From the IMG/VR virus record IMGVR_UViG_3300044613_003659, positions 1 through 64,000 of that record: DNA of 64,000 nucleotides. The stretch is one strand, 5' to 3'. The notes under the pieces are model-generated. The model had not been told where the DNA came from. It was given only the letters and a program-made list of their open reading frames with translations, and ran no database searches. Within the stretch, counting starts at the first letter, position 1, and the number at the start of each line of letters is the position of its first letter. Made by a program: the position numbers and the translations under genes. Positions 34,331 to 56,771 of the stretch are shown in pieces. The DNA comes from a virus.

Positions 34331-34377
34331 ATGCAGTTACCTCTTTGTTACCTTTCCAGTACATTTATTATCAATTG

Positions 34378-34614: not shown

Positions 34615-34625
34615 GCAGATATTTA

Positions 34626-34703: not shown

Positions 34704-34711
34704 ATCAAATT

Positions 34712-34786
34712 TGGTCCGGCGTAAGGGAATCGAACCCCTATTTAAAGATTAGAAGTCTTCTGTATTATCCATTATACGAACGCCAG
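34712..34786 (-). tRNA. tRNA-Arg(UCU)
   Basis: Loop CTTCTAA; CCA. Confidence 0.93.
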
Positions 34787-34793
34787 TAAAACT

Positions 34794-34870
34794 TGGTGGG
34801 CCGGGTGAGACTCGAACTCACTGTCCCCCGATTATGAGTCGGACGCTTATACCAATTAAGCTTCCGGCCC
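34794..34870 (-). tRNA. tRNA-Ile2(CAU, lysidine type; Met not excluded)
   Basis: Anticodon arm CCGAC TCATAA TCGG resembles bacterial tRNA-Ile2; CCA. Confidence 0.8.
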
Positions 34871-34877
34871 TACAACT

Positions 34878-34962
34878 TGGTGCGACTGGCCGGAATCGAA
34901 CCGGCACGACTTTCGTCGGCAGATTTTAAGTCTGCTGTGTATACCTGTTTCACCACAGTCGC
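34878..34962 (-). tRNA. tRNA-Leu(UAA)
   Basis: Loop CTTAAAA; variable arm; CCA. Confidence 0.93.
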
Positions 34963-34970
34963 ATTTTAAA

Positions 34971-35049
34971 TGGTCCGGGAAGTGGGATTCGAACTCACGA
35001 TCTCCTGCTCCCAAAGCAGGCGCTTTAAGCCAGACTAAGCTACACCCGG
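34971..35049 (-). tRNA. tRNA-Pro(UGG)
   Basis: Loop TTTGGGA; C1:G72; CCA. Confidence 0.92.
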
Positions 35050-35057
35050 ATAATTTT

Positions 35058-35282
35058 TTATTCTTCCTCGCTTGAATTAAAATATGCTATTATTTTACTA
35101 CGAGCTTCTGCTTCTGTCAAGGCCGGAACAGTTACGGTAGCTGTTCCGTTTTTAATACTAATATCAAATGGTACACGACCATTAGGCATCCAATTTTCTT
35201 CTACAGGAACACTGATAGTAAACTCCTGTAAGTTCATTAATCTGTCAATTACGCTTTTTGTAAGATCGCTTGGACGTGGCAT
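35058..35282 (-). CDS. Hypothetical protein
   Basis: 74 aa between tRNAs, SD AAGGA. Confidence 0.6.
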   Translation of the reverse strand: MPRPSDLTKSVIDRLMNLQEFTISVPVEENWMPNGRVPFDISIKNGTATVTVPALTEAEARSKIIAYFNSSEEE

Positions 35283-35293
35283 AAAGTATCCTT

Positions 35294-35367
35294 TGGTGCC
35301 CCTTGACAGAATCGAACTGCCATCAGAGGATTACAAATCCACTGTATTACCATTATACTAAAAGGGC
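35294..35367 (-). tRNA. tRNA-Thr(UGU)
   Basis: Loop TTTGTAA; CCA. Confidence 0.93.
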
Positions 35368-35373
35368 CGAATT

Positions 35374-35468
35374 TGGCGGAGAGTGAGGGATTCGAACCCT
35401 CGATACAGGTTTTAGCCCGTATGTCTTCTTAGCAGGAAGGTGGTTTCAGCCAGCTCACCCAACTCTCC
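35374..35468 (-). tRNA. tRNA-Ser(GCU)
   Basis: Loop CTGCTAA; long variable arm; CCA. Confidence 0.93.
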
Positions 35469-35477
35469 AATAACATT

Positions 35478-35506
35478 ATTATATAGTTGAGTAATAGTCC
35501 TGTCAA
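35478..35506 (-). promoter_or_regulatory. Sigma70-type promoter inside the tRNA array
   Basis: TTGACA-17-TATAAT directly upstream of tRNA-Ser(GCU). Confidence 0.8.
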
Positions 35507-35509
35507 CAA

Positions 35510-36112
35510 TTACATGATAGGACCATTACCGTTACGCATTTCAATTGTACCACCTTCTGCCTTGATTCTTTTAATCAAGTCTTCAAGCAAGATAGGTGCA
35601 AAGTCAGTTTGTTCTACACATACACAATGATAGCGAGGATCAATTCGTTCTCGAACACCCCATTCCATGAACTCCATCATAGAACTAGCTCTGCGCATCA
35701 CACGGTTGGCATGAAGGTGACCGTGTACATTTACACCGAAGCGACCCAGGCTTTCTTCATGTATAGGTATATGACTCAAGATCATGCCACTCATCACATG
35801 ATAGCCACGAATATCTCTAAAGTATTTGGTGTAGTCCTCTAGTTTAAAAATATCATGGTTACCACGGATTAACACTTTGTCGCCGTTGAGACGGCCGAGT
35901 GTGGTCAAATGTTTCCTATTAATAACTACATCACCTAGGTGATATACTTTGTCCTTAGGTCTAACACGCTCGTTCCAGGCTTGGACCATGAACTCGTCCA
36001 TTTCCTCAGGGTCATCCCATGGGCGCAGTTTGGTAATACCGTCATTGCGTAGGAATCTGCAGACGCCGGCGTGACCAAAATGCGTGTCACTTATTAAAAA
36101 AGTTGCCGGCAT
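35510..36112 (-). CDS. Metallophosphoesterase
   Basis: SDTHFGH, HLGD, GNHD, HGHLH. Confidence 0.9.
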   Translation of the reverse strand: MPATFLISDTHFGHAGVCRFLRNDGITKLRPWDDPEEMDEFMVQAWNERVRPKDKVYHLGDVVINRKHLTTLGRLNGDKVLIRGNHDIFKLEDYTKYFRDIRGYHVMSGMILSHIPIHEESLGRFGVNVHGHLHANRVMRRASSMMEFMEWGVRERIDPRYHCVCVEQTDFAPILLEDLIKRIKAEGGTIEMRNGNGPIM

Positions 36113-36125
36113 CTTGTTCTCCTTG

Positions 36126-36431
36126 TTATGCTACTAGCCACTTGGTGTTGGCTTTTAATTCAATTGATTCCGCACCATCAAATTCGTCAATTCTAAACTC
36201 TGTGCCTTGATCTATCCATTCAACAGTTAAATCGTCTAATCCACCAAAATATTCGTTTGGATATTTCAATGTTAGGTAGTGTTCTATTTTGTCTAGTTCT
36301 TTGGCCTCAAGCCATAATACAATACTAGGGTCATAAAGCAGTTCCTCTATTTTGTGCCAAGAATACCAACCGGCACCGTAGTCAGGCGATACGAGAACTG
36401 CTACCTTTCCGTCACGGATTAACTTATTCAT
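36126..36431 (-). CDS. Hypothetical phage protein
   Basis: SPDYGAGWYSW, EFDGAESI. Confidence 0.7.
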   Translation of the reverse strand: MNKLIRDGKVAVLVSPDYGAGWYSWHKIEELLYDPSIVLWLEAKELDKIEHYLTLKYPNEYFGGLDDLTVEWIDQGTEFRIDEFDGAESIELKANTKWLVA

Positions 36432-36598
36432 TACAATAACACATTACATGCCTCGTAAAACTTGGTAATATTAAATCTCGTATTAATTTTCATACATGCA
36501 GCGGCTACCGCTGTCGCTGCTTCTACTCTAGTGTTTCTATCTGCAATTTCACTAATATGTTTTGCTATCAACTCAAAGTCTTTTCTAGACATCGTCAT
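36431..36598 (-). CDS. Small hypothetical protein
   Basis: Start MTMSRKDF after AAGGAG. Confidence 0.55.
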   Translation of the reverse strand: MTMSRKDFELIAKHISEIADRNTRVEAATAVAAACMKINTRFNITKFYEACNVLL

Positions 36599-36602
36599 CT
36601 CC

Positions 36603-36914
36603 TTAGGCCCAAACAAGTTCACGTGCTGGAAATTCAATCCGGCCATCAAACTCAAGTTGGTCACGCTCAAATTGGGTTAGATAGTCATCGGCTACAATAT
36701 TGAAATCAACAATGTGTTCACGGAAGTACGCACTGTCTTCTTCAATCTGACTACGCAAAGCCATAACAGCCTGGGTCACATCTTTGCCTCGAAAATTCTT
36801 GACCACATAGTCGTTGCCGCCTTTGGCTTTCCAATACTCAGGGCACTCGCCTTTGCCGTCCCAATCGTGGGCGCCGTAGTTTTCGTAAACTTGGGTAGTG
36901 ATTACTAGTTTCAT
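36603..36914 (-). CDS. Hypothetical phage protein
   Basis: TQVYENYGAHDWDG...YWKAKGG; SD AAGGAG. Confidence 0.7.
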   Translation of the reverse strand: MKLVITTQVYENYGAHDWDGKGECPEYWKAKGGNDYVVKNFRGKDVTQAVMALRSQIEEDSAYFREHIVDFNIVADDYLTQFERDQLEFDGRIEFPARELVWA

Positions 36915-36942
36915 AACAGCTCCTTTGCTTTACTATACCTGT

Positions 36943-37022
36943 ATTATAGCAAAATGAGCCATTATGGTCTACCGTTTTGTTTTGTTGCAAGAATAGCAAC
37001 AAACGTTGCTAGAATAGTAACA
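36943..37022 (-). promoter_or_regulatory. Early-type promoter with two upstream GTTGC-N7-GYAAC palindromes
   Basis: TAGACC-17-TATAAT (36943-36971); palindromes at 36983-37001 and 37004-37022. Confidence 0.7.
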
Positions 37023-37028
37023 ATGTAG

Positions 37029-37102
37029 TGGAGCGGGGTAAGAGAATCGAACTCTCAGCATGAGCTTGGAAGGCTCAGGTATTACCATTATACGAACCCC
37101 GC
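37029..37102 (-). tRNA. tRNA-Gly(UCC)
   Basis: Loop CTTCCAA; U73; CCA. Confidence 0.94.
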
Positions 37103-37110
37103 ATAAAATT

Positions 37111-37185
37111 TGGCGGTCGGTACGGGAGTCGAACCCGTGACTACGGCGTGACAGGCCATTATTATCACCGTTTAACTAACCGACC
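37111..37185 (-). tRNA. tRNA-Asp(GUC)
   Basis: Loop CTGTCAC; CCA. Confidence 0.92.
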
Positions 37186-37191
37186 TACAAC

Positions 37192-37268
37192 TGGCTCCAG
37201 GAATAGGAATCGAACCTATCTGATGAACGGATTAACAGTCCGCTGCCCCACCTTGTGGCCGTCCTGGA
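37192..37268 (-). tRNA. tRNA-Asn(GUU)
   Basis: Loop CTGTTAA; CCA. Confidence 0.9.
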
Positions 37269-37275
37269 ATAAAAC

Positions 37276-37349
37276 TGGTGCCTCGTGATGGAATCGAACC
37301 ACCGTAACCACCGTGTAAGGATGGAGTTCTACCATTAAACTAACGAGGC
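37276..37349 (-). tRNA. tRNA-Val(UAC)
   Basis: Loop CTTACAC; CCA. Confidence 0.92.
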
Positions 37350-37350
37350 T

Positions 37351-37647
37351 TTAAATATATCTATCAATGTTTAGTCCTACTGCACTAGCACGTTGAACTA
37401 ATCTTTGTTCTTTGATACTTTCGCCAAAGGCATAAAGTCTTAAAAATTCTGTTTGTTTGTCATAATCATAATTTCGCTGTAACCTTGTGGCTTCTTGAAT
37501 TGCCATCAAATGGGCTAATTCTCTCATTTCCTGCTGATCAATGTCCTTGCGTTTCATGTCCATAAGAACCTGCACTCGCTGACCAATCATTTGATAATCA
37601 TTCAAATAAGCATAAGGCACACGATATATAATCATAACTATTCCCAA
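37351..37647 (-). CDS. Hypothetical protein
   Basis: Fills the gap between tRNA-Tyr and tRNA-Val; start uncertain. Confidence 0.55.
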   Translation of the reverse strand: MGIVMIIYRVPYAYLNDYQMIGQRVQVLMDMKRKDIDQQEMRELAHLMAIQEATRLQRNYDYDKQTEFLRLYAFGESIKEQRLVQRASAVGLNIDRYI

Positions 37648-37649
37648 TT

Positions 37650-37734
37650 TGGTGGGGATGGAAGGAATCGAACCTACTCACCCGAAAGAACTGATTTACA
37701 GTCAGCCGCCACTCTCCAACTTAGCCGCATCCCC
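37650..37734 (-). tRNA. tRNA-Tyr(GUA)
   Basis: Loop CTGTAAA; variable arm; CCA. Confidence 0.93.
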
Positions 37735-37735
37735 T

Positions 37736-38380
37736 CTATTGCCAAAATTTAATTATTCTACCAGATATGTTAGAATTGAAAGTATTTAAATTTTCATAAA
37801 TTCTACTGATAGTTTTTGACAGTTTTTCACTGTTATCATATTCAAAATGTGTGGAAATAGAATAGACTATAACACCTTTATCATTATGTTTAGCTAGTGC
37901 AAACATTAAATGAGTTTGTGCCGCTTTACCTCCAGGATGACCTACTGAACTGGTAGCAAAATTTCTTGGCACAGCAAAGGCCAATCCACTGGTCATAAAA
38001 ACTATTTTACTATTTTTTTCCATTTTTGTCAGTGCAATAGTAGCAATGATATGTGGAATTATAGCTTGAATAGAAAGGGTAGCTATCCAAGAATTTGTTA
38101 TTCTAGTTATATCTGCTCCTGTGCAATAATCTTCTTCGCTACAAGGGCCGTAATCTGCATTAGAATTGTAAAGAAACAAGTCAATTTTATCAATGTTCTC
38201 TATTAGCTTTTTAAATTTATTCACTACATCATGAATGTCAAAAAAATTTGCGTATAAGTGGTTTGGATTATTTCCGTAATCTTTATGACTCAATATGTAA
38301 ACATTATTACCTTCATCTCGAAATTTATCTGCAATAATTTTTCCGAACTTTTGCCCGCCGCCAATAATAACCACATTCAT
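37736..38380 (-). CDS. Short-chain dehydrogenase/reductase-like protein
   Basis: VIIGGGQKFG Rossmann motif; catalytic YxxxK replaced by HPGGK. Confidence 0.7.
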   Translation of the reverse strand: MNVVIIGGGQKFGKIIADKFRDEGNNVYILSHKDYGNNPNHLYANFFDIHDVVNKFKKLIENIDKIDLFLYNSNADYGPCSEEDYCTGADITRITNSWIATLSIQAIIPHIIATIALTKMEKNSKIVFMTSGLAFAVPRNFATSSVGHPGGKAAQTHLMFALAKHNDKGVIVYSISTHFEYDNSEKLSKTISRIYENLNTFNSNISGRIIKFWQ

Positions 38381-38398
38381 AGTAGATTCCTGATATAA

Positions 38399-38474
38399 TG
38401 GTGGAGGTGACAGGACTTGAACCCGCTACCTTGACCTTGCAAAGGTCCTGCTCTCCCAGGTGAGCTACACCCCC
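38399..38474 (-). tRNA. tRNA-Ala(UGC)
   Basis: Loop TTTGCAA; G3:U70; CCA. Confidence 0.94.
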
Positions 38475-38476
38475 AA

Positions 38477-38725
38477 TTATTCTTTTACGTCTTTTGCATC
38501 AACGCACGTTTCGCCTCTAAACACGTATACATCAGAGTCTACTCGCAGTTGTTCAAATACTTGATTGTTTACACAAATATATGGATCTTTGTGATTTTCC
38601 ATATAAAAGAAAATGCCATATCCAATACCCGCTAATACCATCAATACAGGTACATATTTTAAATATTTTACAATTTCGGGCATAGCACCCAAAATTTGCG
38701 GTAAGTTCTTGAGCAATTCTTTCAT
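38477..38725 (-). CDS. Small membrane protein
   Basis: Start MKELLK; one TM segment. Confidence 0.6.
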   Translation of the reverse strand: MKELLKNLPQILGAMPEIVKYLKYVPVLMVLAGIGYGIFFYMENHKDPYICVNNQVFEQLRVDSDVYVFRGETCVDAKDVKE

Positions 38726-38738
38726 GCTCGTATTTATG

Positions 38739-38814
38739 TGGCACACCCAACCGGATTCGAACCGGTGTAACCACCGTGAAAGGGTGGTGTCCTAGGCCAC
38801 TAGACGATGGGTGC
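38739..38814 (-). tRNA. tRNA-Glu(UUC)
   Basis: Loop CTTTCAC; CCA. Confidence 0.93.
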
Positions 38815-39043
38815 ATCTATTTTTCAACTCTACATTCAGCATTCATTTTACTATTCACTGCTCTTAATCTTGCATTCCAAGTTTTTGCTGATTCTAAGCA
38901 CTTAAGTTCGTTAGGAAACTTTTCGTAGATAGTAAAGTTTTCAGGAAATTGTATCCAAAACACTAACACCCAAGTCATTGCAATCTCCTGTTATGACACT
39001 TAGACCACTGGTACTTGTTAGGTAATCCAATAACCAAAAAATT

Positions 39044-39469
39044 TCATTTATCTGTTATAATTTTTTTACAGTCTAGTAACCAAAGGGCAGCATCGTCTTT
39101 ATCAATAATTAACTTTGCAACGCCATTTCTAGACCAGTAATAACTAAAAATTTTTGTATGTTGATCTGTTTCAAAATAAAACGACTCTTCCGGTAATTGC
39201 CAGGATTCTATAAAAAATCCATCTATTTCTAAACTATCAATGCGAATAAATTTATCAGCTACAATTTCACCATTACTGGTGATTGTGTCATTATCTTTCC
39301 TGTTACCTAAATGAAACTCAATAGTTGTAGGTAATGCAATATCAACATTGACGCAAAATATATCTTTCGTCTCTATTTGTTTAATTTGATTGCCAAATTT
39401 AAGTTCAAGAAACATATATTCATCAGATACCTGTCCTGCTGAAAAATTAAATTTAAAACTAGCAATCAT
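39044..39469 (-). CDS. Hypothetical protein
   Basis: 141 aa coupled ORF. Confidence 0.6.
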   Translation of the reverse strand: MIASFKFNFSAGQVSDEYMFLELKFGNQIKQIETKDIFCVNVDIALPTTIEFHLGNRKDNDTITSNGEIVADKFIRIDSLEIDGFFIESWQLPEESFYFETDQHTKIFSYYWSRNGVAKLIIDKDDAALWLLDCKKIITDK

Positions 39470-40116
39470 AAAAAGTTATTTGCAGCCAAAAAACTCTTGA
39501 CTTCTGACACCGGACTCAACCATCTCATTTGAAATACTTCTCTAAAGCCAGCATTTATAACTCCGTGATCAACTGAAGCATCAATTAAGTTTATTGTACC
39601 AGGTATTGATTGATAAGTTTCTTTATGACCTGTTACTTTATCTATGGCATAACTATATGCTTTTGGATCTGTAGAAGTTATGATTAAATTCAAGTTACAA
39701 ATTTTTTTTGATTCATTTTGAAATGGTTGTGCATTCCAAGTATATTCAGGAATTCCGTCATAATGTTTTATTAATTCTCCATAATGTTCAAAAAAACTAA
39801 ATCCTACAAAATTTAACTTTGCTTCTTTACTTTTTGTAGCAAAATTTTTTAACTCTTGAGGTAAAATATATTCTAAAAAAAGCCCTGACCAAACATAAAA
39901 ATCACAAGCGGAAACATATTTTTTTGATTTATCTACAGTCATTGAACCGTACTTACCTATGCTTCCTCTATAGGCTTGATAACCTGGTTCAAATTCTAAC
40001 TTCAATTCGTTGTTATCAATCTTTTCACGTATTCTATAATATATTTTTCTAATTCTGTCAGAATCAATTTTGATTTTTAAATTTTTTACTGGACAGCAGA
40101 GTAGATTTTTGGACAT
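39466..40116 (-). CDS. Hypothetical protein, possible 2OG-Fe(II) oxygenase fold
   Basis: HYD...HGVIN...R pattern. Confidence 0.45.
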   Translation of the reverse strand: MSKNLLCCPVKNLKIKIDSDRIRKIYYRIREKIDNNELKLEFEPGYQAYRGSIGKYGSMTVDKSKKYVSACDFYVWSGLFLEYILPQELKNFATKSKEAKLNFVGFSFFEHYGELIKHYDGIPEYTWNAQPFQNESKKICNLNLIITSTDPKAYSYAIDKVTGHKETYQSIPGTINLIDASVDHGVINAGFREVFQMRWLSPVSEVKSFLAANNFL

Positions 40117-40174
40117 AAAATTCTTTCGTCTATTAAATATTTAATAGACTAATTTCTCAACACAAATATATTTT

Positions 40175-40367
40175 GGATGTAATTGCTTAGGCCACGCTTT
40201 TCCACGGTCGCCCCCAAGCTGAGTTGTTACCCTGTCCGAACACTAAAGGACTTTGCCGCGTAGTGTTCACGCTGCTATGTCGTCTGAGTTGCCCCGCTAA
40301 AGGTGCCATAGCCACCTGGATTTTCTCGTGCACCACACGCCACTTTCAGGAAAGTGGTAACCGGAAA
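40175..40367 (-). ncRNA. Putative structured ncRNA of about 190 nt
   Basis: GC-rich intergenic stretch with several helices (CCACTTT/AAAGTGG, CTATG/CATAG, GAACACTA/TAGTGTTC, GCTTGGG/CCTAAGC). Confidence 0.6.
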
Positions 40368-40452
40368 CCATATTGAAACACACTCATCTCGCACCGTCAT
40401 ATAGGCGATCAACTCTATACGCTTATAGGCATCAAAATGTGCTTCAATATGG
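40368..40452 (-). ncRNA. Long hairpin starting at the CCA of tRNA-Leu(UAG)
   Basis: CCATATTGAAGCACATT...AGTGTGTTTCAATATGG inverted repeat. Confidence 0.6.
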
Positions 40453-40530
40453 TGCCCCAGGAGGGACTCGAACCCTCACCCGAAGACTGGCTTCTAAGAC
40501 CAGCGTGTCTACCAGTTCCACCACCGGGGC
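40450..40530 (-). tRNA. tRNA-Leu(UAG)
   Basis: Loop CTTAGAA; CCA. Confidence 0.92.
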
Positions 40531-40575
40531 ATTTACTGCTTGATTGTTAATGAACGTTTACTGCACTATTTCATT

Positions 40576-40604
40576 ATTATATAAAACTAGTGATTAATTG
40601 TCAA
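40576..40604 (-). promoter_or_regulatory. Sigma70-type promoter inside the tRNA array
   Basis: TTGACA-17-TATAAT. Confidence 0.8.
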
Positions 40605-40629
40605 CCTAAAGTGTCTTATAAATATTGCA

Positions 40630-41691
40630 ATGAATAAAGTGTTTACAATCAAGCCAAATTTATTTCCAAAGAAAAACTTTAAAGATTTGTACTGCCCGGA
40701 TCCATTTGAAACAGTTCAAATTGATCAAGCAGGTAATGTTCGTTTATGTGGATGCGAAAACTGGCATCCTCAGCAAATAGGAAACATATTTCAACAATCA
40801 TTAGTAGAAATTTTTAATAGTAAATTAGCCAATCAAATTAGACAAAGTATACGTGATGGTTCCTATATATATTGCAACGAACAAACGTGTGGAAGCATAA
40901 TTAATCAAACATTAATTCCGTTAAATAAACTTGACCCAGAGCTTCAAAAAAAATTTACTACCTGCGATTACTTTGAAATGCCTTATACTTTTTATATTGC
41001 CGGCGATGATACTTGTAATCTAAGTTGCCCAAGTTGTCGCACAAGAGTAATTGATAAAAATGAATATAACCTCACGCAAAATTCTGCAGCATTAAATATT
41101 TTAAATGAACAAATTTTCAATGGATCAAGCGATAAAAATATTACTATAAAATTAAGCACATCCGGCGAAGTGTTTGCCAGTACTTTGTTAATGGAATTTG
41201 TTTCAAAATTCAACATTCAAAACTATCCTAAAGCAGAATTTTGGTTTCAAAGTAATGGACTTTTGATCAGCAGTAGATGGAACAGAATAGCGCATATCGC
41301 CGATCACATACAAAATTTCACTATTACAGCAGACAGTTGTACCAAAGCCACTTACGAAAAACTTCGAAGAGGTGGTAAGTTTGAAAAATTGCTTGATAAC
41401 TTAAATTTTTTGAAAATTAAAAAACATCAGCATCATTTTCATTTTATGTTACGTATAGTAGTGCAATATGACAACTATAGCGAACTAGAACAGTTTTATA
41501 ATTTTGCCAAATCGTATGATGTTGATTTAGTTGAATATGTTAGAATCACCAATTGGAACACATATTCTCAAGAACAGTTTTCTAGTATCGATGTCCTTGA
41601 TGCCAGACATCCATTATACGATACTGTTTCTAGTAAATTAAAAGTACTGCACCAGCGACCCGATGTAAAAATTTATGGAGCAACTTTGTAA
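40630..41691 (+). CDS. Radical SAM protein with N-terminal SPASM/twitch-like domain
   Basis: CNLSCPSC; N-terminal C..PF...GNVRLC...IGNI; TATAAATA upstream. Confidence 0.88.
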   Translation: MNKVFTIKPNLFPKKNFKDLYCPDPFETVQIDQAGNVRLCGCENWHPQQIGNIFQQSLVEIFNSKLANQIRQSIRDGSYIYCNEQTCGSIINQTLIPLNKLDPELQKKFTTCDYFEMPYTFYIAGDDTCNLSCPSCRTRVIDKNEYNLTQNSAALNILNEQIFNGSSDKNITIKLSTSGEVFASTLLMEFVSKFNIQNYPKAEFWFQSNGLLISSRWNRIAHIADHIQNFTITADSCTKATYEKLRRGGKFEKLLDNLNFLKIKKHQHHFHFMLRIVVQYDNYSELEQFYNFAKSYDVDLVEYVRITNWNTYSQEQFSSIDVLDARHPLYDTVSSKLKVLHQRPDVKIYGATL

Positions 41692-41693
41692 AA

Positions 41694-41769
41694 TGGCAGT
41701 AGAGATCGGATTCGAACCGATGATAGCCACCGTATGAAGATGGTGCATTAGCCACTATGCTACTCTACT
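41694..41769 (-). tRNA. tRNA-Met(CAU), elongator-like
   Basis: Loop TTCATAC; paired 1:72; unusual G73; CCA. Confidence 0.8.
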
Positions 41770-41999
41770 TTGGATTTTACTAATTTGATTATTTTTTCAA
41801 TTGTGATAGCATCAGCAGCTTCGTCGGCTTGGATAGCTATCTTGAACACTCGTTCAATATCCATGGTGATCTCTACGGTGTCAAGCGAGTCGGCACCAAG
41901 ATCAGCAACAATGGCATGCGCCATTGATAACTCTGCTGGATCTACTCCAAACTGATTGGCAATTATTTCAAATATTTTTGATTCTATGTCAGTCAACAT
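41760..41999 (-). CDS. acpP: Acyl carrier protein
   Basis: DLGADSLDTVE phosphopantetheine motif. Confidence 0.92.
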   Translation of the reverse strand: MLTDIESKIFEIIANQFGVDPAELSMAHAIVADLGADSLDTVEITMDIERVFKIAIQADEAADAITIEKIIKLVKSKVE

Positions 42000-42714
42000 A
42001 TTGATACACTAGCCTACTTTGGTTGATTGAATTCATACTAACTACTTCGTTTTCAGTGGTGCCTCTGCGTATGTAAATACCCTCATGTATGAAGCTGTTA
42101 CGTTTAAAAACTGCACCTGGTTTTAGAGCTTTTACAGCCACTCCAAAAAATACATCCGGCTCCACAACGTTGTTGCCGGTCAAAATGCATTGTCTTTGAA
42201 ACACGCAATTTTTACCTACCACATTGTCATGCCCTATTAGCGTATTATAGTATATGCTAACAAAATCGCCAATCTTTGATTTTACCTCTATCATTACATG
42301 TGCATCCAAAAATACTCCGCGCCCAATTTCTGCATACTTGAGCATTCGTGCATCCCTATCAACCAAACTGATACAGTTTAGACTGTTGGATTCAATCAAG
42401 TCAATCAAACGATTTCGCTTTTGTCTGTTGCGTACAGCAACAGGAGATTGTTCCGGTATCCAATTGGTAGCACAGAAAAAATTATAGTTGTTTCTGTAGT
42501 GCGCCAATTTTGCAGTGTCATTGATAAATGATTCTGAATCAATGACAGGAATCTCACACAGTTGATCACAGTTACCGTAGTAATCAGAATCAATTATGCC
42601 AGCAACTGTAATGCCGTGGTCTTCGCAAATGCCGGCCAACTTGTACATTATGCTGTTTGATCCCAGAAATATCAAAGGCCGAGTGGCGTCATTGATGTGC
42701 GAGATATGCGTCAT
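41989..42714 (-). CDS. Hexapeptide-repeat sugar O/N-acetyltransferase (NeuD/PglD-like)
   Basis: Rossmann-like N-terminus then IGRGV/IGDFV/IGHDNVVG hexapeptide repeats; start MTHISH. Confidence 0.75.
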   Translation of the reverse strand: MTHISHINDATRPLIFLGSNSIMYKLAGICEDHGITVAGIIDSDYYGNCDQLCEIPVIDSESFINDTAKLAHYRNNYNFFCATNWIPEQSPVAVRNRQKRNRLIDLIESNSLNCISLVDRDARMLKYAEIGRGVFLDAHVMIEVKSKIGDFVSIYYNTLIGHDNVVGKNCVFQRQCILTGNNVVEPDVFFGVAVKALKPGAVFKRNSFIHEGIYIRRGTTENEVVSMNSINQSRLVYQYVD

Positions 42715-43750
42715 GTTGCTCTTCTTCAAATATCCTACGACGTTCTTGATCAACAAGACTTGCAAATTGATCATGTGTGATTGTTTCACCTTTGAATCTC
42801 AATGTGTTCATTGGCGCTGCATGTTCATACAACTTGTCCCAATAGGTAATTACTCTTGCCATGGTTCTACGGTCACCATCTTTGACATTGGTAGGGCGTT
42901 TGTGCAACGTGATCTCTTGGTCCATGAATACAATTTGCCCATCTTGCCAATGCTGGCTGTAAACCCAACGATTGTTATATACTATTCTTTTTAACTCATC
43001 AAATAGTCTCACACTTTCATCCATACTCATTCCCACAAATCCATCAAAACTGTGTGCAGGAAATTTAATACCCGGTAATCCTGTGACTGACTCGGCATAC
43101 AATCTAGTTTCTGTACCGTCCAGTGGTGCTTGATTGTAGCGTATGACCAAGCTGGGAGTTGGTTCTAGGTCTGGCGCCATACGTCCTTCTACCCAACGGT
43201 GTTTGCAATATAATTCTTTGACTGTGCTTTGCATATCGGCACTCATTGAGTCAAATGCATCATGGGTGCATAAAAATTGTGTACAACTGTTGGCAGTATC
43301 ACTTACGCTTTGCAGACCAATCACTCTTGGACTGTCATCGTATGCACATTGATCACTGTGCCAGTCTAGTTCACCATTTGGAAACAATCCCTTGGGACGA
43401 TTCTTTTCGTCTTTTTTGTATGTGACAGCAGAAACTGCAGAAATCATTTGTTTGTCTACATTTCTGATGTCTTTGGTTGTATATCCTAGGTGTAAATAAA
43501 TTTCTCTCCAATGCCGCCCATTCAAGCGTTCACTTACAATATAATCGTGTATAAGTGCGCGGCTGGGCCTGCCCCACTGAGTCTGTATTTCAAACAGTCT
43601 TTGTGTACTGATCTTTTGATCCACTAGAACAATACACTGGCTAGCAACTAGGCGCCCAAATTCAAGTATTTCCTCATCGGAGTTCAAATCAATATCATAC
43701 ACTTCTACACCTACACTGGCGCTATAATTCTTTAACGCACGAATTTTCAT
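42689..43750 (-). CDS. TauD/TfdA-family Fe(II)/2-oxoglutarate dioxygenase
   Basis: WHSD and W..G..V..D...TLHKR...R motifs. Confidence 0.88.
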   Translation of the reverse strand: MKIRALKNYSASVGVEVYDIDLNSDEEILEFGRLVASQCIVLVDQKISTQRLFEIQTQWGRPSRALIHDYIVSERLNGRHWREIYLHLGYTTKDIRNVDKQMISAVSAVTYKKDEKNRPKGLFPNGELDWHSDQCAYDDSPRVIGLQSVSDTANSCTQFLCTHDAFDSMSADMQSTVKELYCKHRWVEGRMAPDLEPTPSLVIRYNQAPLDGTETRLYAESVTGLPGIKFPAHSFDGFVGMSMDESVRLFDELKRIVYNNRWVYSQHWQDGQIVFMDQEITLHKRPTNVKDGDRRTMARVITYWDKLYEHAAPMNTLRFKGETITHDQFASLVDQERRRIFEEEQHDAYLAHQ

Positions 43751-43927
43751 AACATTATCCTCTTAAAATTTTTTTTGTAGGCTAGCAGCAATCTGCATAC
43801 GGACGGCGTTCTACATGTAACACAGTAGTAAAAGGGTCGTACCCTAAGCGTCATAGTGATACCGACGTCAACTGTTGTTGGCGTTGCAAAATTATTTATA
43901 ATTAATTGTGTGTAATAAAAAAATACT

Positions 43928-44004
43928 TGGTACCCACTCCTGGAATCGAACCAGGGACCCCAACCTTATCAAGATTGTGCTCTAACCGACTGAGCTAAGT
44001 GGGC
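43928..44004 (-). tRNA. tRNA-Ile(GAU)
   Basis: Loop TTGATAA; CCA. Confidence 0.93.
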
Positions 44005-44005
44005 A

Positions 44006-44080
44006 TGGCCGGTCCGGACAGATTCGAACTGCCGACAGCTGGTTTCGAAGACCAGAACTCTTCCGCTGAGCTACGGACCG
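44006..44080 (-). tRNA. tRNA-Arg(UCG)
   Basis: Loop CTTCGAA; CCA. Confidence 0.9.
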
Positions 44081-44110
44081 TTAAATAAAAGTATGCTTGG
44101 TAAATTAATA

Positions 44111-44187
44111 TGTTGGGTCTGGATGGATTTGAACCAACTACCTCCGTGTTGTTTGCACGGTGCTCTACCAGATTGAGCTACAGACCT
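44111..44187 (-). pseudogene. Degenerate tRNA-like gene (nominal anticodon AAC)
   Basis: Good D arm and anticodon stem; loop CAAACAA lacks U33, 1:72 mismatch, ends ACA not CCA. Confidence 0.65.
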
Positions 44188-44264
44188 CCCCGGTCCGGGA
44201 ACTAATTCTCCTGCAACCGGTACAATATTTATAGGACAACAATTTACATAGTTCGAGAACTTAT

Positions 44265-44966
44265 ATGACATTACACATCATTGGACACAGTATGACAATC
44301 GGGCATCATTGTCATGAATCACAGTCAAATCGAAATTTACCTACAACATTCAGTGACATGTTGATAGAAAAATATCGTGATCAATTTGATGTTCAAGTGC
44401 ATTCCTACAGACAATGTTCTGAAGAACGAATTTTACAGATTGTAAGAACAATAAAGTCGCCCATCGATAAAGTGATTATTTTCCATTCCCACCCGTCATT
44501 TGTTTATTTTCCTAGTTTTGATCGAGACATTGGATGCATAGATGATATAGAATATATACAAAGTTTAGATATTGTATGTTACTATAATTACTGTAAACCC
44601 GGAAAACCATTTGACCCTAACGATAAGCTTTCTAGACCCATATCCGGCTCTGAGTTCGTGCAGATATATAAAACAGTTATGAACTACACGGTGTCAGCTG
44701 ATGTTTCACAAAAACGTTTCAATGGAGCAATACTACAAATTGATCAACTGCTAACAGTTAGAAAAATTCCTGTGATACATTGTCCAATGGCCAAAACATT
44801 ACCAGTCTGGTTTAATTTTTCTTCTGGCATTACAGATAACGAGTTGAGTATCATCGACTCGGGTAAACATAATATAGGGTACCAAAGATCTTTAAACGCT
44901 ATTGATAATGAAGGGAATACAATTATCTTTAATAAATTATCAGAATATATTGACAATTTAACTTAA
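44265..44966 (+). CDS. Hypothetical protein (SGNH-like N-terminus)
   Basis: IIGHSMT start; antisense insertion in the tRNA array. Confidence 0.6.
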   Translation: MTLHIIGHSMTIGHHCHESQSNRNLPTTFSDMLIEKYRDQFDVQVHSYRQCSEERILQIVRTIKSPIDKVIIFHSHPSFVYFPSFDRDIGCIDDIEYIQSLDIVCYYNYCKPGKPFDPNDKLSRPISGSEFVQIYKTVMNYTVSADVSQKRFNGAILQIDQLLTVRKIPVIHCPMAKTLPVWFNFSSGITDNELSIIDSGKHNIGYQRSLNAIDNEGNTIIFNKLSEYIDNLT

Positions 44967-45042
44967 TGGTGCCGGCTCCTGGTTACGCTCCAGGCCATTA
45001 TGCTCTTCAGGCATACGCTTCCACTAGGTTAGCTTAGACGGC
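44967..45042 (-). tRNA. tRNA-Phe(GAA) with non-canonical T loop
   Basis: Loop CTGAAGA; T loop AGCGTAA; CCA. Confidence 0.85.
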
Positions 45043-45043
45043 A

Positions 45044-45119
45044 TGGGGTGTCCGACCGGTATCGATCCGGTACTACCAGTTTCACAGACTAGTGTGCAGG
45101 CCACTACACTACGGACACC
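45044..45119 (-). tRNA. tRNA-His(GUG)
   Basis: Loop CTGTGAA; G-1:C73; T loop ATCGATA; CCA. Confidence 0.9.
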
Positions 45120-45121
45120 AC

Positions 45122-45196
45122 TGGTAGGGGATGAGGGATTCGAACCCCCGCATGGCGGAATCAAAATCCGCTGTCTTACCGCTTGACGAATCCCCA
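45122..45196 (-). tRNA. tRNA-Gln(UUG)
   Basis: Loop TTTTGAT; CCA. Confidence 0.92.
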
Positions 45197-45197
45197 A

Positions 45198-45347
45198 TTA
45201 ACTTGGTATGACTTTTGGAATGTAAGGAACATTCCTGGGCCCGTGACGTTGTTCAAACAACATTCTTGCTTCTTGCAAATCTTTTGCGTACACACGATCT
45301 TTTTGATCACCTTGCGGTGTTCTTACTGTAGTTTCATACATTGGCAT
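45198..45347 (-). CDS. Small hypothetical protein
   Basis: MPMYETTVRTPQG... after AAGGAG. Confidence 0.55.
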   Translation of the reverse strand: MPMYETTVRTPQGDQKDRVYAKDLQEARMLFEQRHGPRNVPYIPKVIPS

Positions 45348-45361
45348 TACCGTCTCCTTGT

Positions 45362-45460
45362 ACCATATAGAAACACACTGTGGGATTCGAACCCTCACTC
45401 TCGGCATCAGAGAGCATTACCACCCGTCGTGCCCTTCGGCTCAATGTGTTTTTATATGGT
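45362..45460 (-). ncRNA. Long hairpin from tRNA-Lys CCA enclosing a tRNA-like T arm
   Basis: ACCATATAAAAACACATTG...CAGTGTGTTTCTATATGGT; inner CTCTC/GAGAG hairpin and GGGTTCGAATCCC. Confidence 0.6.
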
Positions 45461-45533
45461 GGGTGCGGTGAGATTCGAACTCACGACTCTCTGATTAAAA
45501 GTCAGATACTCTAACCAACTGAGTTACGCACCC
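45457..45533 (-). tRNA. tRNA-Lys(UUU)
   Basis: Loop CTTTTAA; CCA. Confidence 0.94.
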
Positions 45534-45882
45534 TTACGTTTGGGACCGCCGTCCGTCTTGTCACTGTCCATATGTCTCCTTAAAAATATATTTTACATCT
45601 ATTTTACATTACGGTCAACCATTACTAAAATTACTATTGTAAAAAATAATACTGTCAAAGCCCCATTTTGGTTTCCTCCTAAAAAATTATTTAAATGGAA
45701 TACACCCTGCACTCGCTCTATAGTTTTCAATTTGAATAGTTTTTACTGCCTGATCTCGAGCCCTAATACAAGATTCGTAGTTTGGGAATTTCGCTTGAAT
45801 ACTACCGCTACTGGTTGGCAACTCAGATGTATTACTCCATAATGAAATTACCAGAATCCACATACAGCCTCCTTGTTGTATT

Positions 45883-45977
45883 TGGTAGTAGGCCAGGGAT
45901 TCGAACCCTGTCGTTCCAGCCCATCTAGCCAGTCTCCACGGTTTATAAGTCCGCGCCGCATACCAATGCTGCCTACC
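45883..45977 (-). tRNA. Atypical tRNA with UAU anticodon, long variable arm and 4-nt D loop
   Basis: GGTAGGC/GCCTACT-A-CCA acceptor; GCAT-TGGT-ATGC D arm; loop CTTATAA; CAGGG-TTCGAAT-CCCTG T arm. Confidence 0.75.
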
Positions 45978-45984
45978 ATTTCAG

Positions 45985-46245
45985 CACACTCTGGTTGTCC
46001 AAAAGACCTCCTTCTCATCGTCACGGGACAAGAACGATATTCGTCCAAAGTGTATGATTGAGCAGACTAGTGGCTACGGTGATAGCACGACTGCTGTCCA
46101 AGCAGCTGGGATTACAAGGCCCCCGATACTCTTCTAATCTGTTCAATCATTCCCGTTTTACTAAGCCGTTACCGCCGGCAGGTTCATCAAGGGCTCCGCC
46201 CGTTTAGCAATTTATAGTGCTGCTGCGGCCTCGTTCCGCTTACAC
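45985..46245 (-). ncRNA. Cluster of putative structured ncRNA elements
   Basis: Closing helices ACACTTTGG/CCAGAGTGT (45985-46053) and ATGATTGAACAGATTAG/CTAGTCTGCTCAATCAT (46054-46150), plus GC-rich 46151-46245. Confidence 0.55.
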
Positions 46246-46249
46246 TTTG

Positions 46250-46417
46250 TTATCTATGTCGCTTAGTTAGACGACGTAATTCTTCATTTGTTTCCAATTG
46301 CTCACGCAATCTTTTCATTTTACCTTTAACTAATTGTTCAAGTAACTTATCGTTAAAAACAAAATTACGTTCTTCTAACTTTTTTTGAAACGACAGTATA
46401 TCTTGTTCGTTCGTCAT
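46250..46417 (-). CDS. 55-aa charged helical protein (not in ORF track), first gene after the attenuator
   Basis: MTNEQDILSFQKKLEERNF...RRLTKRHR*; SD AAGGAAG. Confidence 0.6.
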   Translation of the reverse strand: MTNEQDILSFQKKLEERNFVFNDKLLEQLVKGKMKRLREQLETNEELRRLTKRHR

Positions 46418-46429: not shown

Positions 46430-46466
46430 AAAACAAAAACCCCAGGGTTTTGAGTCCTGGGGTTTT
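46430..46466 (-). terminator. Intrinsic terminator (attenuator) upstream of the tRNA array
   Basis: AAAACCCCAGG-9 nt-CCTGGGGTTTT followed by TGTTTT. Confidence 0.85.
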
Positions 46467-46508
46467 ATAGAATTTAATTACAACCTTAGATTCTATGATC
46501 CCCCCAGG
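46456..46508 (-). promoter_or_regulatory. Antiterminator hairpin, mutually exclusive with the terminator
   Basis: CCTGGGG..ATAGAAT in the leader ORF 3' end pairs with ATTCTAT..CCCCAGG, which includes the terminator 5' arm. Confidence 0.75.
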
Positions 46509-46605
46509 CACGATTACTATCACCGCGTGTAATCATAACCCAATAGGCTATTAGCCCAAATTCGGGTTGTGATTTAAATGAGCAATGTAATTGTACTTGG
46601 TTCAT
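46486..46605 (-). CDS. Putative attenuator leader peptide (39 aa, all 20 amino acids)
   Basis: MNQVQLHCSFKSQPEFGLIAYWVMITRGDSNRAWGDHRI*; lies between promoter and terminator, overlapping the antiterminator. Confidence 0.75.
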   Translation of the reverse strand: MNQVQLHCSFKSQPEFGLIAYWVMITRGDSNRAWGDHRI

Positions 46606-46615
46606 AATAGTTTCT

Positions 46616-46644
46616 ATACTACATTTATTTATCTTTGTAGTCAA
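46616..46644 (-). promoter_or_regulatory. Promoter of the leader/tRNA transcript
   Basis: TTGACT-17-TAGTAT with a TAAATA motif in the spacer; ATG 10 nt after the -10 box. Confidence 0.7.
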
Positions 46645-46655
46645 CCTGATTTGAT

Positions 46656-46682
46656 AAAAAAGCCCGATAGTTGGGCTTTTTT
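46656..46682. terminator. Intrinsic terminator after pqqA
   Basis: AAAAAAGCCC...GGGCTTTTTT. Confidence 0.8.
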
Positions 46683-46705: not shown

Positions 46706-46780
46706 TTAACGATTTGCAATATACATAGTGATTTCAAAACCAAAACGCATATCATTTGCTTGTGGTGTAGTCCATGCCAT
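46706..46780 (-). CDS. pqqA: PQQ precursor peptide PqqA
   Basis: MAWTTPQANDMRFGFEITMYIANR*; W..P...R.GFE..MY with E-X3-Y; SD AAGGAG. Confidence 0.92.
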   Translation of the reverse strand: MAWTTPQANDMRFGFEITMYIANR

Positions 46781-47110: not shown

Positions 47111-47506
47111 TTATTTTGTTAGCTTACCTAACATTCGATATCCTTTTGCTGTTGGATGCACACCATCGGGTGATAGTTCAGGTATATTTATAAAAGTATC
47201 GCCATAACTTCGAGCAATCTTTTGTACTATTTCTTGTTTTTGTGGTTGATTGGCAGGCACAATCCAAAACACTCGATCAGATTTTACGCTATGCCTCAGT
47301 GCCACTAGCTCTATTTGTGTATTAAGTAATCTGTAGTCATTGCTGCCCAAACTGATAATTGTAGTCTGGGCAGGTTTGACTTTTCTTATATAGATGTTGT
47401 TCCAATCATGACTGTTAATACCACTTTGTGCATAGGTTACACATTCGGTTCTAACTTGACCAATACCTTTGGCGATACTGTCACCTACTATCAAACATTC
47501 TAACAT
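47111..47506 (-). CDS. SGNH/GDSL hydrolase
   Basis: GDSIA, GSND, DGVHP. Confidence 0.85.
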   Translation of the reverse strand: MLECLIVGDSIAKGIGQVRTECVTYAQSGINSHDWNNIYIRKVKPAQTTIISLGSNDYRLLNTQIELVALRHSVKSDRVFWIVPANQPQKQEIVQKIARSYGDTFINIPELSPDGVHPTAKGYRMLGKLTK

Positions 47507-47516
47507 ACCACTCCTA

Positions 47517-48137
47517 TCAAGACAAAGTTAAACTAGGTTGACTATCAAAGTCTCGAATTAAACTTTGTACAGTATTGGCATATACCTGAGTACTGTGAGA
47601 GTAATCAGCATGATCCACACCAACAGTCAATGCAGTTTGGTTGTCGCGCAGTGTCTTGATCATGTCTGCAGTTAGTTCAAAACGTAAAAAATGCACTGCT
47701 GCTGTTTTAACTTCGTTGCTACGATCAAGATCTTCGTCTGCAATTGCATACACAGGATCATGACCTTCTACTCGAACATACACACGGTCTTCAACTCCGC
47801 GTAGTCGAGCCAACTGTTGTTGTCTTACTGCAGGATCACCGTATTCAAGAGTGAGAGTAGCTTTTAGATTGGTACCTGTGGGAATCAATGGATTGTATGC
47901 ATCAAGTTCATCCTGGATTCCCTGCTTACTAAAAGTACGCTCAATCAACAGCATCTCTTGAATCTGATATTGAACTGTAACACGATCCTCAAAGTGCAAG
48001 GTCATGTTCATGCCCAATTTGATCTGCCTACGCTTACGGTGTTCTACAGCCAGACGCTTGTAGTCTGGACGTTTTGAACTGTACTGTTCAAGAGAATGTA
48101 GGTCTTGATGTGTAAGCATATTAGGCACTTTCAGCAC
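47517..48137 (-). CDS. DUF3501-family protein
   Basis: YQIQEML..E, ELDAYNPLIP, AVHFLRF; adjacent to rubrerythrin. Confidence 0.85.
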   Translation of the reverse strand: MLKVPNMLTHQDLHSLEQYSSKRPDYKRLAVEHRKRRQIKLGMNMTLHFEDRVTVQYQIQEMLLIERTFSKQGIQDELDAYNPLIPTGTNLKATLTLEYGDPAVRQQQLARLRGVEDRVYVRVEGHDPVYAIADEDLDRSNEVKTAAVHFLRFELTADMIKTLRDNQTALTVGVDHADYSHSTQVYANTVQSLIRDFDSQPSLTLS

Positions 48138-48555
48138 GATAGGTGTCTAGAGTTTTCTTGAACTTGCCAGCATGGCTACGCTCGGCCTTGGCCAATGTGT
48201 CAAACCAGTCAGCAATTTCGTCAAAGCCTTCGTCTCTGGCATCACGAGCCATACCCGGATACATATCGGTATATTCGTGTGTTTCGCCATGGATAGCACT
48301 TTCTAGAGCCTGTACGATATCACCAGCTGGCAAACCAGTTTCTGGATCGCCTGAACCGCCGGCAATTAGATATTCCATGTGACCATGTGCATGACCTGTT
48401 TCACCTTCTGCGGTATGACGGAAGATGTTGGCTACGTCAGTTGCACCAGCGATGTCGGCCATGTTTGCGAAATACAAATAGCGACGATTGGCCTTTGATT
48501 CACCTGCAAAAGCATCTTTCAAATGCTGTTCTGTTTTAGTTCCTGTAATTTTCAT
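48121..48555 (-). CDS. Rubrerythrin (short type, no rubredoxin domain)
   Basis: AFAGES.ANRRY, ETGHA, E..EYTDMYP, AERSHA; start MKITG after AAGGAG. Confidence 0.92.
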
Positions 48556-48736
48556 TTTGATCTCCTTGTTGAAAAAGTGTTGCATTGCATTATATTATAT
48601 ATGACTATTAGGCCTATTGTCAACTCGTTTTTAATAGTTTTTTTATGAATATTTTTTTATTGTTCTAATAGAAAAAATCTAAGTCCGTGTTGTCCAATAA
48701 ATATTTGTGCTTAAGGCTTTCAATTATGGGTGATAA

Positions 48737-56025: not shown

Positions 56026-56050
56026 TAAAAATAGGCACCTAAGTGCCTAT
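56026..56050 (-). terminator. Terminator of tmRNA
   Basis: AATAGGCAC-TTAG-GTGCCTATTTTT. Confidence 0.8.
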
Positions 56051-56370
<320 letters not shown>

Positions 56371-56771
56371 GTTTACTTACGTAAAAACCAAATCATATCT
56401 AAATATTTTTGAAGATGTTTTTCTTGAACGGATTTAGCCCAACTTGGTTGTGGTAAATTCCACCCAATAAATGCACCTACCATAATCCAAAAAATTGTTT
56501 CTAACATTGTACGCTCCTTTGTTTTTTTACATTAGAAAACCATACAAAGCACACCATAATTCAAGAAGAACATAATATCCAGCATATGCTAGTATGCATA
56601 CCACTATTAAATCAACCACTGACCGAATATCATTTATTTTCATCGTCTTTGTTTTCTTTGATCCATTCATAATAGATTAAGCCTAATGCAACGGATATAC
56701 TACCAACTAGTAAAACTCCGAGCAAAAAGCCTACAATAAAATACAAACGGTTTACTTCATCCACCTAATAT

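Follow-up and report, generated by a model that had tools for sequence, protein, structure and literature searches.

The stretch of DNA analysed here (the window) comprises 64,000 nucleotides (nt), namely positions 1 to 64,000 of the IMG/VR virus record IMGVR_UViG_3300044613_003659. Between positions 46430 and 46644, its minus strand carries a short open reading frame (ORF) enclosed by a promoter and an intrinsic terminator, at the head of an array of transfer RNA (tRNA) genes. An earlier reading of the sequence (the original prediction) had taken this element to be an attenuator whose leader peptide samples every class of tRNA. A promoter scan places a sigma-70-type promoter at 46616–46644 (minus strand), i.e. 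TTGACT (46644–46639) and TAGTAT (46621–46616) separated by 17 nt. The leader ORF (46486–46605, minus strand; MNQVQLHC...GDHRI) consists of 39 codons and the stop codon TAA (46488–46486). Its ATG at 46605 lies 10 nt past the −10 hexamer and has no Shine-Dalgarno sequence, and the messenger RNA (mRNA) is probably leaderless or nearly so, with a 5′ untranslated region of 0–4 nt. The set of 20 amino acids is complete by codon 29. In addition, the split codon families are each represented by both of their boxes, namely: TTA and CTA; TCA and AGT; ATA and ATT; and CGC/CGT and AGA (codon 38), together with an internal ATG. Among the stop-free 29-codon segments in all six frames of the window, 7 out of 33,812 contain all 20 amino acids and all 7 fall within the leader ORF, while for 38-codon segments the number is 72 out of 26,411 (0.27%).

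The RNA of the leader can form several hairpins. Inside the ORF, a central hairpin is predicted by folding at 46531–46574 (minus strand), formed by AAUCACAACCCGA and UUGGGUUAUGAUU with the inner stem GGGCU/AGCCU. Further downstream, an antiterminator hairpin (46456–46508, minus strand) pairs a 5′ strand, CCUGGGG..AUAGAAU, with a 3′ strand, AUUCUAU..CCCCAGG. The 5′ strand corresponds to codons 33–38 (46508–46490) and its complement to 46473–46456, with the TAA of the leader ORF one base past the 5′ strand of the apical helix. The intrinsic terminator (46435–46462, minus strand) consists of CCCCAGG, a 9-nt loop, CCUGGGG and UUUUU, i.e. a GC-rich stem of 7 base pairs (bp) and a U run, and its 5′ arm doubles as part of the antiterminator 3′ strand. 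On the upstream side, the sequence reveals the intrinsic terminator of the pqqA gene (46655–46680, minus strand), AGCCC-loop-GGGCU followed by a U run, which would insulate the element from transcription entering from upstream. The promoter, the 39-codon ORF without a Shine-Dalgarno sequence, its codon usage, the antiterminator pairing and the terminator are all found where the original prediction had placed them, and its assignment of the upstream terminator to pqqA is borne out by the sequence and by a Pfam match of the gene.

Downstream of the leader, 24–26 tRNA genes on the same strand cover the code. The array spans 32519–45978 (minus strand), with 24 tRNAs detected by ARAGORN, one detected by Rfam and one tRNA-like gene, interspersed with ORFs. 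Two other features precede it. The first gene after the terminator (46250–46417, minus strand) encodes a 55-residue protein; it has its own Shine-Dalgarno sequence (AAAGGAAGCG-ATG) and starts 17 nt past the terminator. It is followed by a conserved structured RNA of about 130–150 nt (46100–46245, ends approximate; minus strand), located between the putative attenuator and the tRNAs.

Homologues of the element were sought in IMG/VR. BLASTN and nhmmer searches with the copy in the window return only two close relatives, at 80–84% nucleotide identity, and an exact search with the central hairpin sequence returns the same two. In both of these (L002 and L004) the indels are in frame and the substitutions are mostly non-synonymous. 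A relative that shares the promoter and terminator of the window but has a different leader served as the starting point for scans of IMG/VR, first by the terminator motif and then by a central motif independent of the terminator, for which chance matches inside long ORFs were discarded. The scans identify at least 147 elements with at least 140 unique ORFs of 30–53 codons, in huge-phage contigs. The family counts given below (140 unique ORFs, 138 of them with at least 34 codons, and 136–137 folded) are among the matches listed. No match is found by BLASTN of the window element and of a type-B relative against 50,697 GenBank phage records, and all members of the family known to date come from uncultured IMG/VR contigs. 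The window is itself part of a 107.6-kilobase (kb) record with an estimated completeness of 29%; the relatives of its phage measure 320–357 kb, and it thus belongs to a huge phage.

All 138 ORFs that reach 34 codons keep the leader frame open, while the +1 frame is closed in 132 and the +2 frame in all 138; among composition-matched dinucleotide shuffles of the leaders, 8% are free of stops. Initiation signals are also conserved. In the ‘type A’ homologues (46 copies including the window), the ATG is positioned 6–10 nt past a conserved TTGACA-17-TACAAT promoter, at 9–10 nt from the −10 hexamer in 41 copies and 6–7 nt in 5, from which we infer a leaderless or nearly leaderless mRNA. A purine-rich Shine-Dalgarno-like motif is present in 81 of the remaining 92. 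The leader ORF is thus probably translated.

These data bear on the possibility that the element is a non-coding regulatory RNA, i.e. a small regulatory RNA or a ligand- or tRNA-binding leader of riboswitch type, with the open frame as a by-product. Such a role would agree with the strong structure of the window transcript, which folds far better than its shuffles (z = −5.4), with conservation at the nucleotide level and with the second conserved structured RNA that follows the leader. However, it does not account for a frame kept open in 138 of 138 diverged copies when other frames are closed, for an ATG found either at a fixed leaderless distance or after a Shine-Dalgarno-like motif, or for indels that are in frame. 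Furthermore, the leader matches no Rfam family at gathering or lax thresholds. The Trp_leader, His_leader and Thr_leader models reach at best 15–21 bits on the leader against gathering scores of 41–55 (E ≥ 0.3), and the T-box model from Rfam gives no match in the leader region. We therefore regard a purely non-coding role as very improbable.

Several hallmarks of an attenuator are present in the element: a promoter-proximal ORF, a terminator ahead of the genes, an antiterminator that shares bases with it, and a stop codon at the top of the antiterminator. Folding of 63 representatives gives a single hairpin that extends from the G-run through the terminator 5′ arm, in which GGGGUCC/GGACCCC forms the outer helix and GGAG/CUYC the middle one, while the apical helix is variable. 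The mean energies in these 63 are −25 kcal/mol for this hairpin and −16 kcal/mol for the terminator, and the hairpin has a mean z of −5.6. The sequence of the apical helix varies among members but its complementarity is kept, as judged from per-sequence folds and shuffle z-scores; RNAalifold on the whole-element alignment recovers the terminator only, because the variable apical helix is misaligned, and ungapped stacks resolve only the outer helices. The terminator stem covaries in the homologues (variants CCCUAGG/CCUAGGG), as does the outer antiterminator helix. In alignment A4, a single column (64) has covarying partners in both helices, namely column 2 in the antiterminator (GC 23, AU 8) and column 80 in the terminator (CG 26, UA 5, UG 4), and both structures exceed every shuffled and slid control in cells paired and in covariation score. 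The alternative helices proposed for the window are thus conserved and covarying in its relatives.

The fold that the RNA adopts by itself is predicted to be the antiterminator. When the naked RNA is folded up to the 5′ arm of the terminator, i.e. before the 3′ arm is made, the antiterminator forms in 136 of 137 copies, and for the full-length RNA it is the minimum-energy form in 108 of 137. A 1:2 anti-antiterminator hairpin as in trp was looked for by folding and not found: although conserved hairpins are present inside the leader ORF in the folds and in the family alignment, the antiterminator 5′ strand stays free in 136 of 137 predicted folds. The geometry of the trp and his attenuators, to which the element had been likened, holds for the leader ORF, the terminator, the antiterminator and the placement of the stop codon, whereas a 1:2 hairpin of the trp kind is not seen in the predicted folds; in its naked state, the RNA of the family members folds into the antiterminator by default.

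The stop codon is tightly tied to this structure. Its first base falls within −2 to +5 nt of the top of the antiterminator 5′ strand in 136 of 136 copies, 22–34 nt before the terminator arm. The peptide diverges, as had been anticipated for relatives in which the frame stays open. The entropies at codon positions 1, 2 and 3 are 1.19, 1.12 and 1.21 in the family, i.e. third positions are no freer than the others, and all three frames are used to read the antiterminator motif GGGUC (frame 0 in 56 copies, frame 2 in 59 and frame 1 in 5). The peptide itself shows no purifying selection, and conservation thus applies to the RNA together with an open frame through it rather than to a protein. A functional small protein, whose hairpins would simply be its terminator and whose amino acid diversity would be incidental, might be suspected from a peptide core, ..AKQ.GFMPSYWSAI..NDRTPE.., that is common to many members. 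Such a protein would be expected neither to have third codon positions as constrained as the first and second, nor to have its C-terminal part read in three frames across members, nor to have its stop codon fixed at the apex of a hairpin whose formation is in competition with that of the terminator. In addition, the peptides are neither hydrophobic nor charged in character and match no Pfam family. We give this explanation very little credence.

Amino acid coverage in the family far exceeds what these genomes provide by chance. All 20 amino acids occur in 116 of the 140 unique ORFs (83%) and 19 kinds occur in 18 more; the full-coverage leaders have 34–53 codons, and two peptides of 34 residues contain all 20. 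Among windows drawn from long ORFs of the same phages, 2.0% of those of 46 residues and 0.14% of those of 35 residues have all 20, and random windows overall range from 0.14 to 3%. Stop-free dinucleotide shuffles of the leaders reach 6.4%, and when residues are shuffled column by column in the alignment, the rate is 17% (at most 24%). The original expectation that full coverage would be rare in random windows and yet common in homologues therefore holds. Although a leader has on average only about 1.1 copies each of Cys, Trp, His and internal Met, these residues are present in 92–99% of leaders, compared to 47–68% expected. Cys occupies 32 different alignment columns, indicating that it has been relocated repeatedly rather than lost.

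Coverage extends to the codon classes that are read by different isoacceptors. All nine split decoding classes, i.e. the two boxes each of Leu, Ser, Arg and Ile and an internal Met, occur together in 80 of 138 leaders against 24.6 expected from resampling synonymous codons at genomic usage, which agrees with the isoacceptor coverage noted in the window. In the approximately 38 codons ahead of the antiterminator strand, all 20 kinds are present in 74% of leaders and at least 19 in 96%. Despite the shared ancestry of the copies, the mobility of the rare residues and the case of a split tRNA array (see below) argue for selection on the presence of every amino acid.

The element heads a tRNA array wherever this can be seen, as had been proposed for the window. 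Among the 63 loci with more than 1.5 kb of downstream sequence, all 63 have a tRNA array on the same strand after the leader, and none has one on the opposite strand. The median distance from leader to array is 446 nt, with typically 10–30 tRNAs within 6 kb; where enough sequence is available, arrays of 20–41 tRNAs with 18–20 isotypes are found behind leaders with all 20 amino acids. Homologues of the 55-residue protein (50–60 residues, motif ..HTLTxEQxxKLIxxKxxRA..) are encoded at this position in 95 of 138 members, beginning 14–19 nt past the terminator. The protein is modelled by AlphaFold2 as a two-helix hairpin with a predicted local distance difference test score (pLDDT) of 89.6, and neither it nor its homologues match a family in Pfam.

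The conserved RNA is present in 55 of 60 representative loci (e.g. L126:3239-3391 and L085:1358-1510). It is marked by AGUG.., GGAACG(A/C)G..CC, CACUAUAAACAU, CACU.. and ACGGGCGG, and by a covarying helix that is closed after GAUG ... AAAA; compensatory changes are found in 7 of its 8 predicted pairs. No family in Rfam 15 matches it at gathering or lax thresholds. Two resemblances were considered and dropped, namely to a T-box, since AAUGAGGGCGG resembles a T-box sequence but no model matches, and to a hammerhead (motifs GAUGA..GAAA), for which Rfam gives no match at lax thresholds. It may be a further functional RNA of the module, for example in processing, processive antitermination or action in trans. 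The regulated unit is therefore wider than the tRNAs, with the small protein gene and the conserved RNA coming first.

A divergent member of the family (L114), in a complete record of 357,559 bp (G041), provides an informative case. Its tRNA array, in the region from 284263 downwards (loci L300/L301), is split in two blocks, each headed by a leader, antiterminator, terminator and copy of the conserved RNA of its own. The first leader has 13 kinds of amino acids and lacks C, H, I, K, Q, W and Y; the block behind it contains Asn, Ser, Asp, Ala, Glu, Gly, Thr, Leu, Pro and Met tRNAs, and 10 out of 10 of these are represented in the leader. About 4 kb further on, a second leader ORF (MTKQIFKHMFCIRWY...) precedes the second block, with its own GGGGG/CCCCC antiterminator, a stop codon at the apex and its own terminator, and is again followed by the conserved RNA. 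The second block contains Ile, Trp, Cys, Lys, Gln, Met, Arg, His and Phe tRNAs, and 9 out of 9 isotypes are present in the second leader. Each leader thus matches its own block, i.e. leader composition tracks the identity of the tRNAs that follow, and the all-20 leader of the window would be the limiting case in which one leader stands before a complete tRNA set.

Composition matching also bears on whether the element might be a generic translation-coupled attenuator, which would report ribosome availability, global translation arrest, toxins or antibiotics aimed at the ribosome, or initiation capacity rather than the supply of each tRNA, and for which amino acid diversity would matter little. 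Any failure of translation would give read-through, given that the naked RNA defaults to the antiterminator; furthermore, attenuators of the whiB7 type, which rely on an upstream ORF (uORF), respond to general translation stress (PMC10274678), and a tRNA operon in Anabaena is induced by general translational stress (PMC8421152). However, a sensor of this kind leaves unexplained why all 20 amino acids and the split boxes are kept in 34–50 codons while the rare residues move, and why, where an array is split, the amino acids are divided between the leaders exactly as the isotypes are between the tRNA blocks. We consider it unlikely.

Taken together, these observations suggest that the element is a ribosome-mediated (leader-peptide) transcription attenuator that heads the phage tRNA array, to which we assign a probability of roughly 75%. 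Host RNA polymerase would start at the sigma-70-type promoter, and the nascent, leaderless or nearly leaderless RNA would be translated at once. The RNA could adopt two folds, the strong antiterminator hairpin or the intrinsic terminator. A ribosome that keeps pace with the polymerase would melt the antiterminator 5′ strand and halt at the apex, freeing GGACCCCAGG to pair with CCUGGGG, and transcription would end. If the ribosome is late, or stalled at an earlier codon, the antiterminator would stay and transcription would read through into the small gene, the RNA and the tRNAs. Since no amino acid is missing from the approximately 35 codons ahead of the antiterminator, and the Leu, Ser, Arg and Ile codons there usually come from both boxes, slow decoding of any class should raise transcription of the array. 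The tRNA genes would thus probably be transcribed more when ribosomes decode any codon class slowly; more tRNA would in turn speed up decoding and shut the array down, forming a feedback loop that supplies tRNA on demand. Candidate triggers, which the sequence cannot tell apart, are anticodon nucleases of the host, phage codon usage that fits the host tRNA pool poorly, and starvation. The central hairpin may act as a pause site. The proposal is supported by sequence comparison, namely by the anatomy of the element, the conservation of the ORF, the selection for coverage, the covarying alternative helices, the linkage to tRNAs and the matching of composition, while translation of the ORF, the direction in which the switch turns, a leaderless start and the physiological trigger are inferred.

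Several observations weigh against this interpretation or limit its reach. The homologues share ancestry, and the coverage counts are thus not independent events. A conserved central RNA motif (AAUGAUCGYACACCAGAG and others) is not explained by the attenuator model. The copy in the window is among the 29 full-length RNAs in which the terminator wins, with an antiterminator of about −14.5 kcal/mol compared to −16.1 kcal/mol for the terminator, so that read-through may be modest in this copy. Codons that lie within the antiterminator strand, such as the AGA at codon 38 of the window and often Glu or Val codons in relatives, are expected to be sensed poorly or not at all. Finally, the array contains promoters of its own. 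As the original prediction had noted for positions 40604 and 35506, two perfect sigma-70 consensus promoters (12 of 12 positions) are found inside the array at 40576–40604 and 35478–35506 (minus strand), and these would drive the later tRNA blocks without the attenuator. Among 60 representative relatives, 16 have a promoter-like site between the terminator and the first tRNA, many of them just before that tRNA. The attenuator would therefore modulate or add to tRNA transcription rather than gate it fully.

Further features of the locus lie outside the switch itself. In the family alignment A3, a GGC..GCC hairpin and a CCAA/UUGG pairing that match the central hairpin of the window recur, with the invariant Trp codon UGG located in its 3′ strand, and the hairpin is conserved at the nucleotide level with no third-position relaxation. 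Within the tRNA array, the gene detected by Rfam only is located at 33605–33692 (minus strand; 34.4 bits). The tRNA-like gene of 93 nt at 45886–45978 (minus strand) carries a long variable arm and an anticodon loop, CUUAUAA, whose anticodon UAU reads AUA; it is missed by ARAGORN and scores 31.7 bits with the Rfam tRNA-Sec model, below the gathering score. The tRNA at 44114–44187 (minus strand) is called tRNA-Val(AAC) by ARAGORN, with an unusual anticodon, whereas it was first read as Phe.

Upstream of the leader, pqqA (46706–46780, minus strand) is a stand-alone gene for a 24-residue PqqA precursor (Pfam PF08042, E = 2e-10) with its own terminator, and pqqB-E are not nearby. Its position beside the leader is not kept in the close relatives: L002 lacks the gene, and in L004 the two are separated by about 940 bp. 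Thus, pqqA is outside the module of leader and tRNAs. Upstream lies an accessory operon that encodes rubrerythrin, a DUF3501 protein and a GDSL-type hydrolase (47111–48585, minus strand) and closes with a strong terminator (47105–47092); the surrounding synteny differs among relatives. The phage also encodes a transfer-messenger RNA (tmRNA; 56026–56415, minus strand) with the tag peptide ANAANDEVFALAA. This tmRNA fits both the betaproteobacterial and the permuted tmRNA models, which hints at a betaproteobacterial host. The DnaE-like polymerase of the phage has about 80 close relatives in IMG/VR at 60–97% identity, while in GenBank phages it reaches a match of only 37%, to an uncultured phage of 484 kb.

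Why phages carry tRNA genes, and how these are controlled, is a long-standing question to which compensation of codon usage, replacement of degraded host tRNAs and escape from tRNA-cleaving defences are rival answers. If the proposed mechanism is true, the tRNA arrays behind these leaders are expressed on demand, attenuation extends from its textbook role in amino acid biosynthesis to the tRNA genes themselves, and the control of phage tRNAs becomes directly testable with an element of roughly 190 nt. We lean towards a broader view in which giant phages possess a closed-loop tRNA homeostat: a disposable and often leaderless test message, in which all amino acids and most isoacceptor boxes are sampled, turns decoding speed directly into transcription of the complete phage tRNA set, and the sensor is modular and rewritable. 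Such a homeostat would automatically counter host anticodon nucleases and mismatched codon usage, and each block of a split array would acquire a leader spelled in its own isotypes. As a compact part of natural origin, the element would also serve to report the translation capacity for each codon class separately. A widespread structured RNA and a small protein come to light with the module as well.

Leader-peptide attenuators are known from the amino acid operons of enterobacteria, namely: trpL, hisL, pheL and leuL, and the multivalent thrL and ilvL. The phage element shares with them a short promoter-proximal ORF, mutually exclusive hairpins, termination favoured by a ribosome at the stop codon and read-through favoured by stalling, as well as regulatory codons that correspond to what the operon supplies. 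It differs in that it would regulate tRNAs, together with a small protein and an RNA, instead of biosynthetic enzymes, and in that its leader has one or two codons of every amino acid instead of runs of a single residue. Many of the phage copies are leaderless, and there is no sequence or Rfam relationship. Furthermore, since no 1:2 anti-antiterminator is found, an untranslated phage leader RNA should read through, unlike trp, where it would super-attenuate. T-box riboswitches bind one specific uncharged tRNA directly and need no translation. They likewise couple tRNA status to a choice between antiterminator and terminator, but the phage leader matches no T-box model.

The closest known system is the uORF attenuator of mycobacterial whiB7, with which the likeness is in mechanism only. 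Efficient translation of the whiB7 uORF leads to a Rho-independent terminator, while translation stress leads to an antiterminator and read-through (PMC10274678). In M. smegmatis this uORF is long and diverse and contains every amino acid except Cys, and experiments with variants lacking Trp or His demonstrate that uORF composition decides which starvations are sensed (PMC10274678). The whiB7 uORFs are 25–40% alanine, differ in their missing amino acids and act on a transcription factor that serves drug resistance and the homeostasis of alanine (PMC10274678). In contrast, the phage leader is viral and not rich in Ala (2 of the 39 residues in the window), its complete and even coverage is conserved (83%), and its output would be the very tRNA pool that is sensed. 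In Anabaena, the trn operon, an accessory array with about 26 tRNA genes, is held at a low level and switched on under impaired translation, controlled by the ribbon-helix-helix repressor TrcR, which acts on direct repeats over the −10 hexamer and the transcription start site (PMC8421152, PMC10272220). Both systems concern tRNA arrays, but that of Anabaena lacks both a leader ORF and an RNA switch. In mycobacteria, short polycysteine ORFs that are leaderless and located at the 5′ ends of operons are described as amino acid-responsive attenuators (bioRxiv 10.1101/834739); as presented there, these respond to Cys only and belong to cysteine-related operons on bacterial chromosomes, whereas the phage leader is viral and contains all amino acids. 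No published attenuator of tRNA genes or leader with all amino acids was found in the literature searched, which omitted most subscription journals. The phage element would thus represent a known kind of regulator, leader-peptide attenuation, newly seen with tRNA genes as its target.

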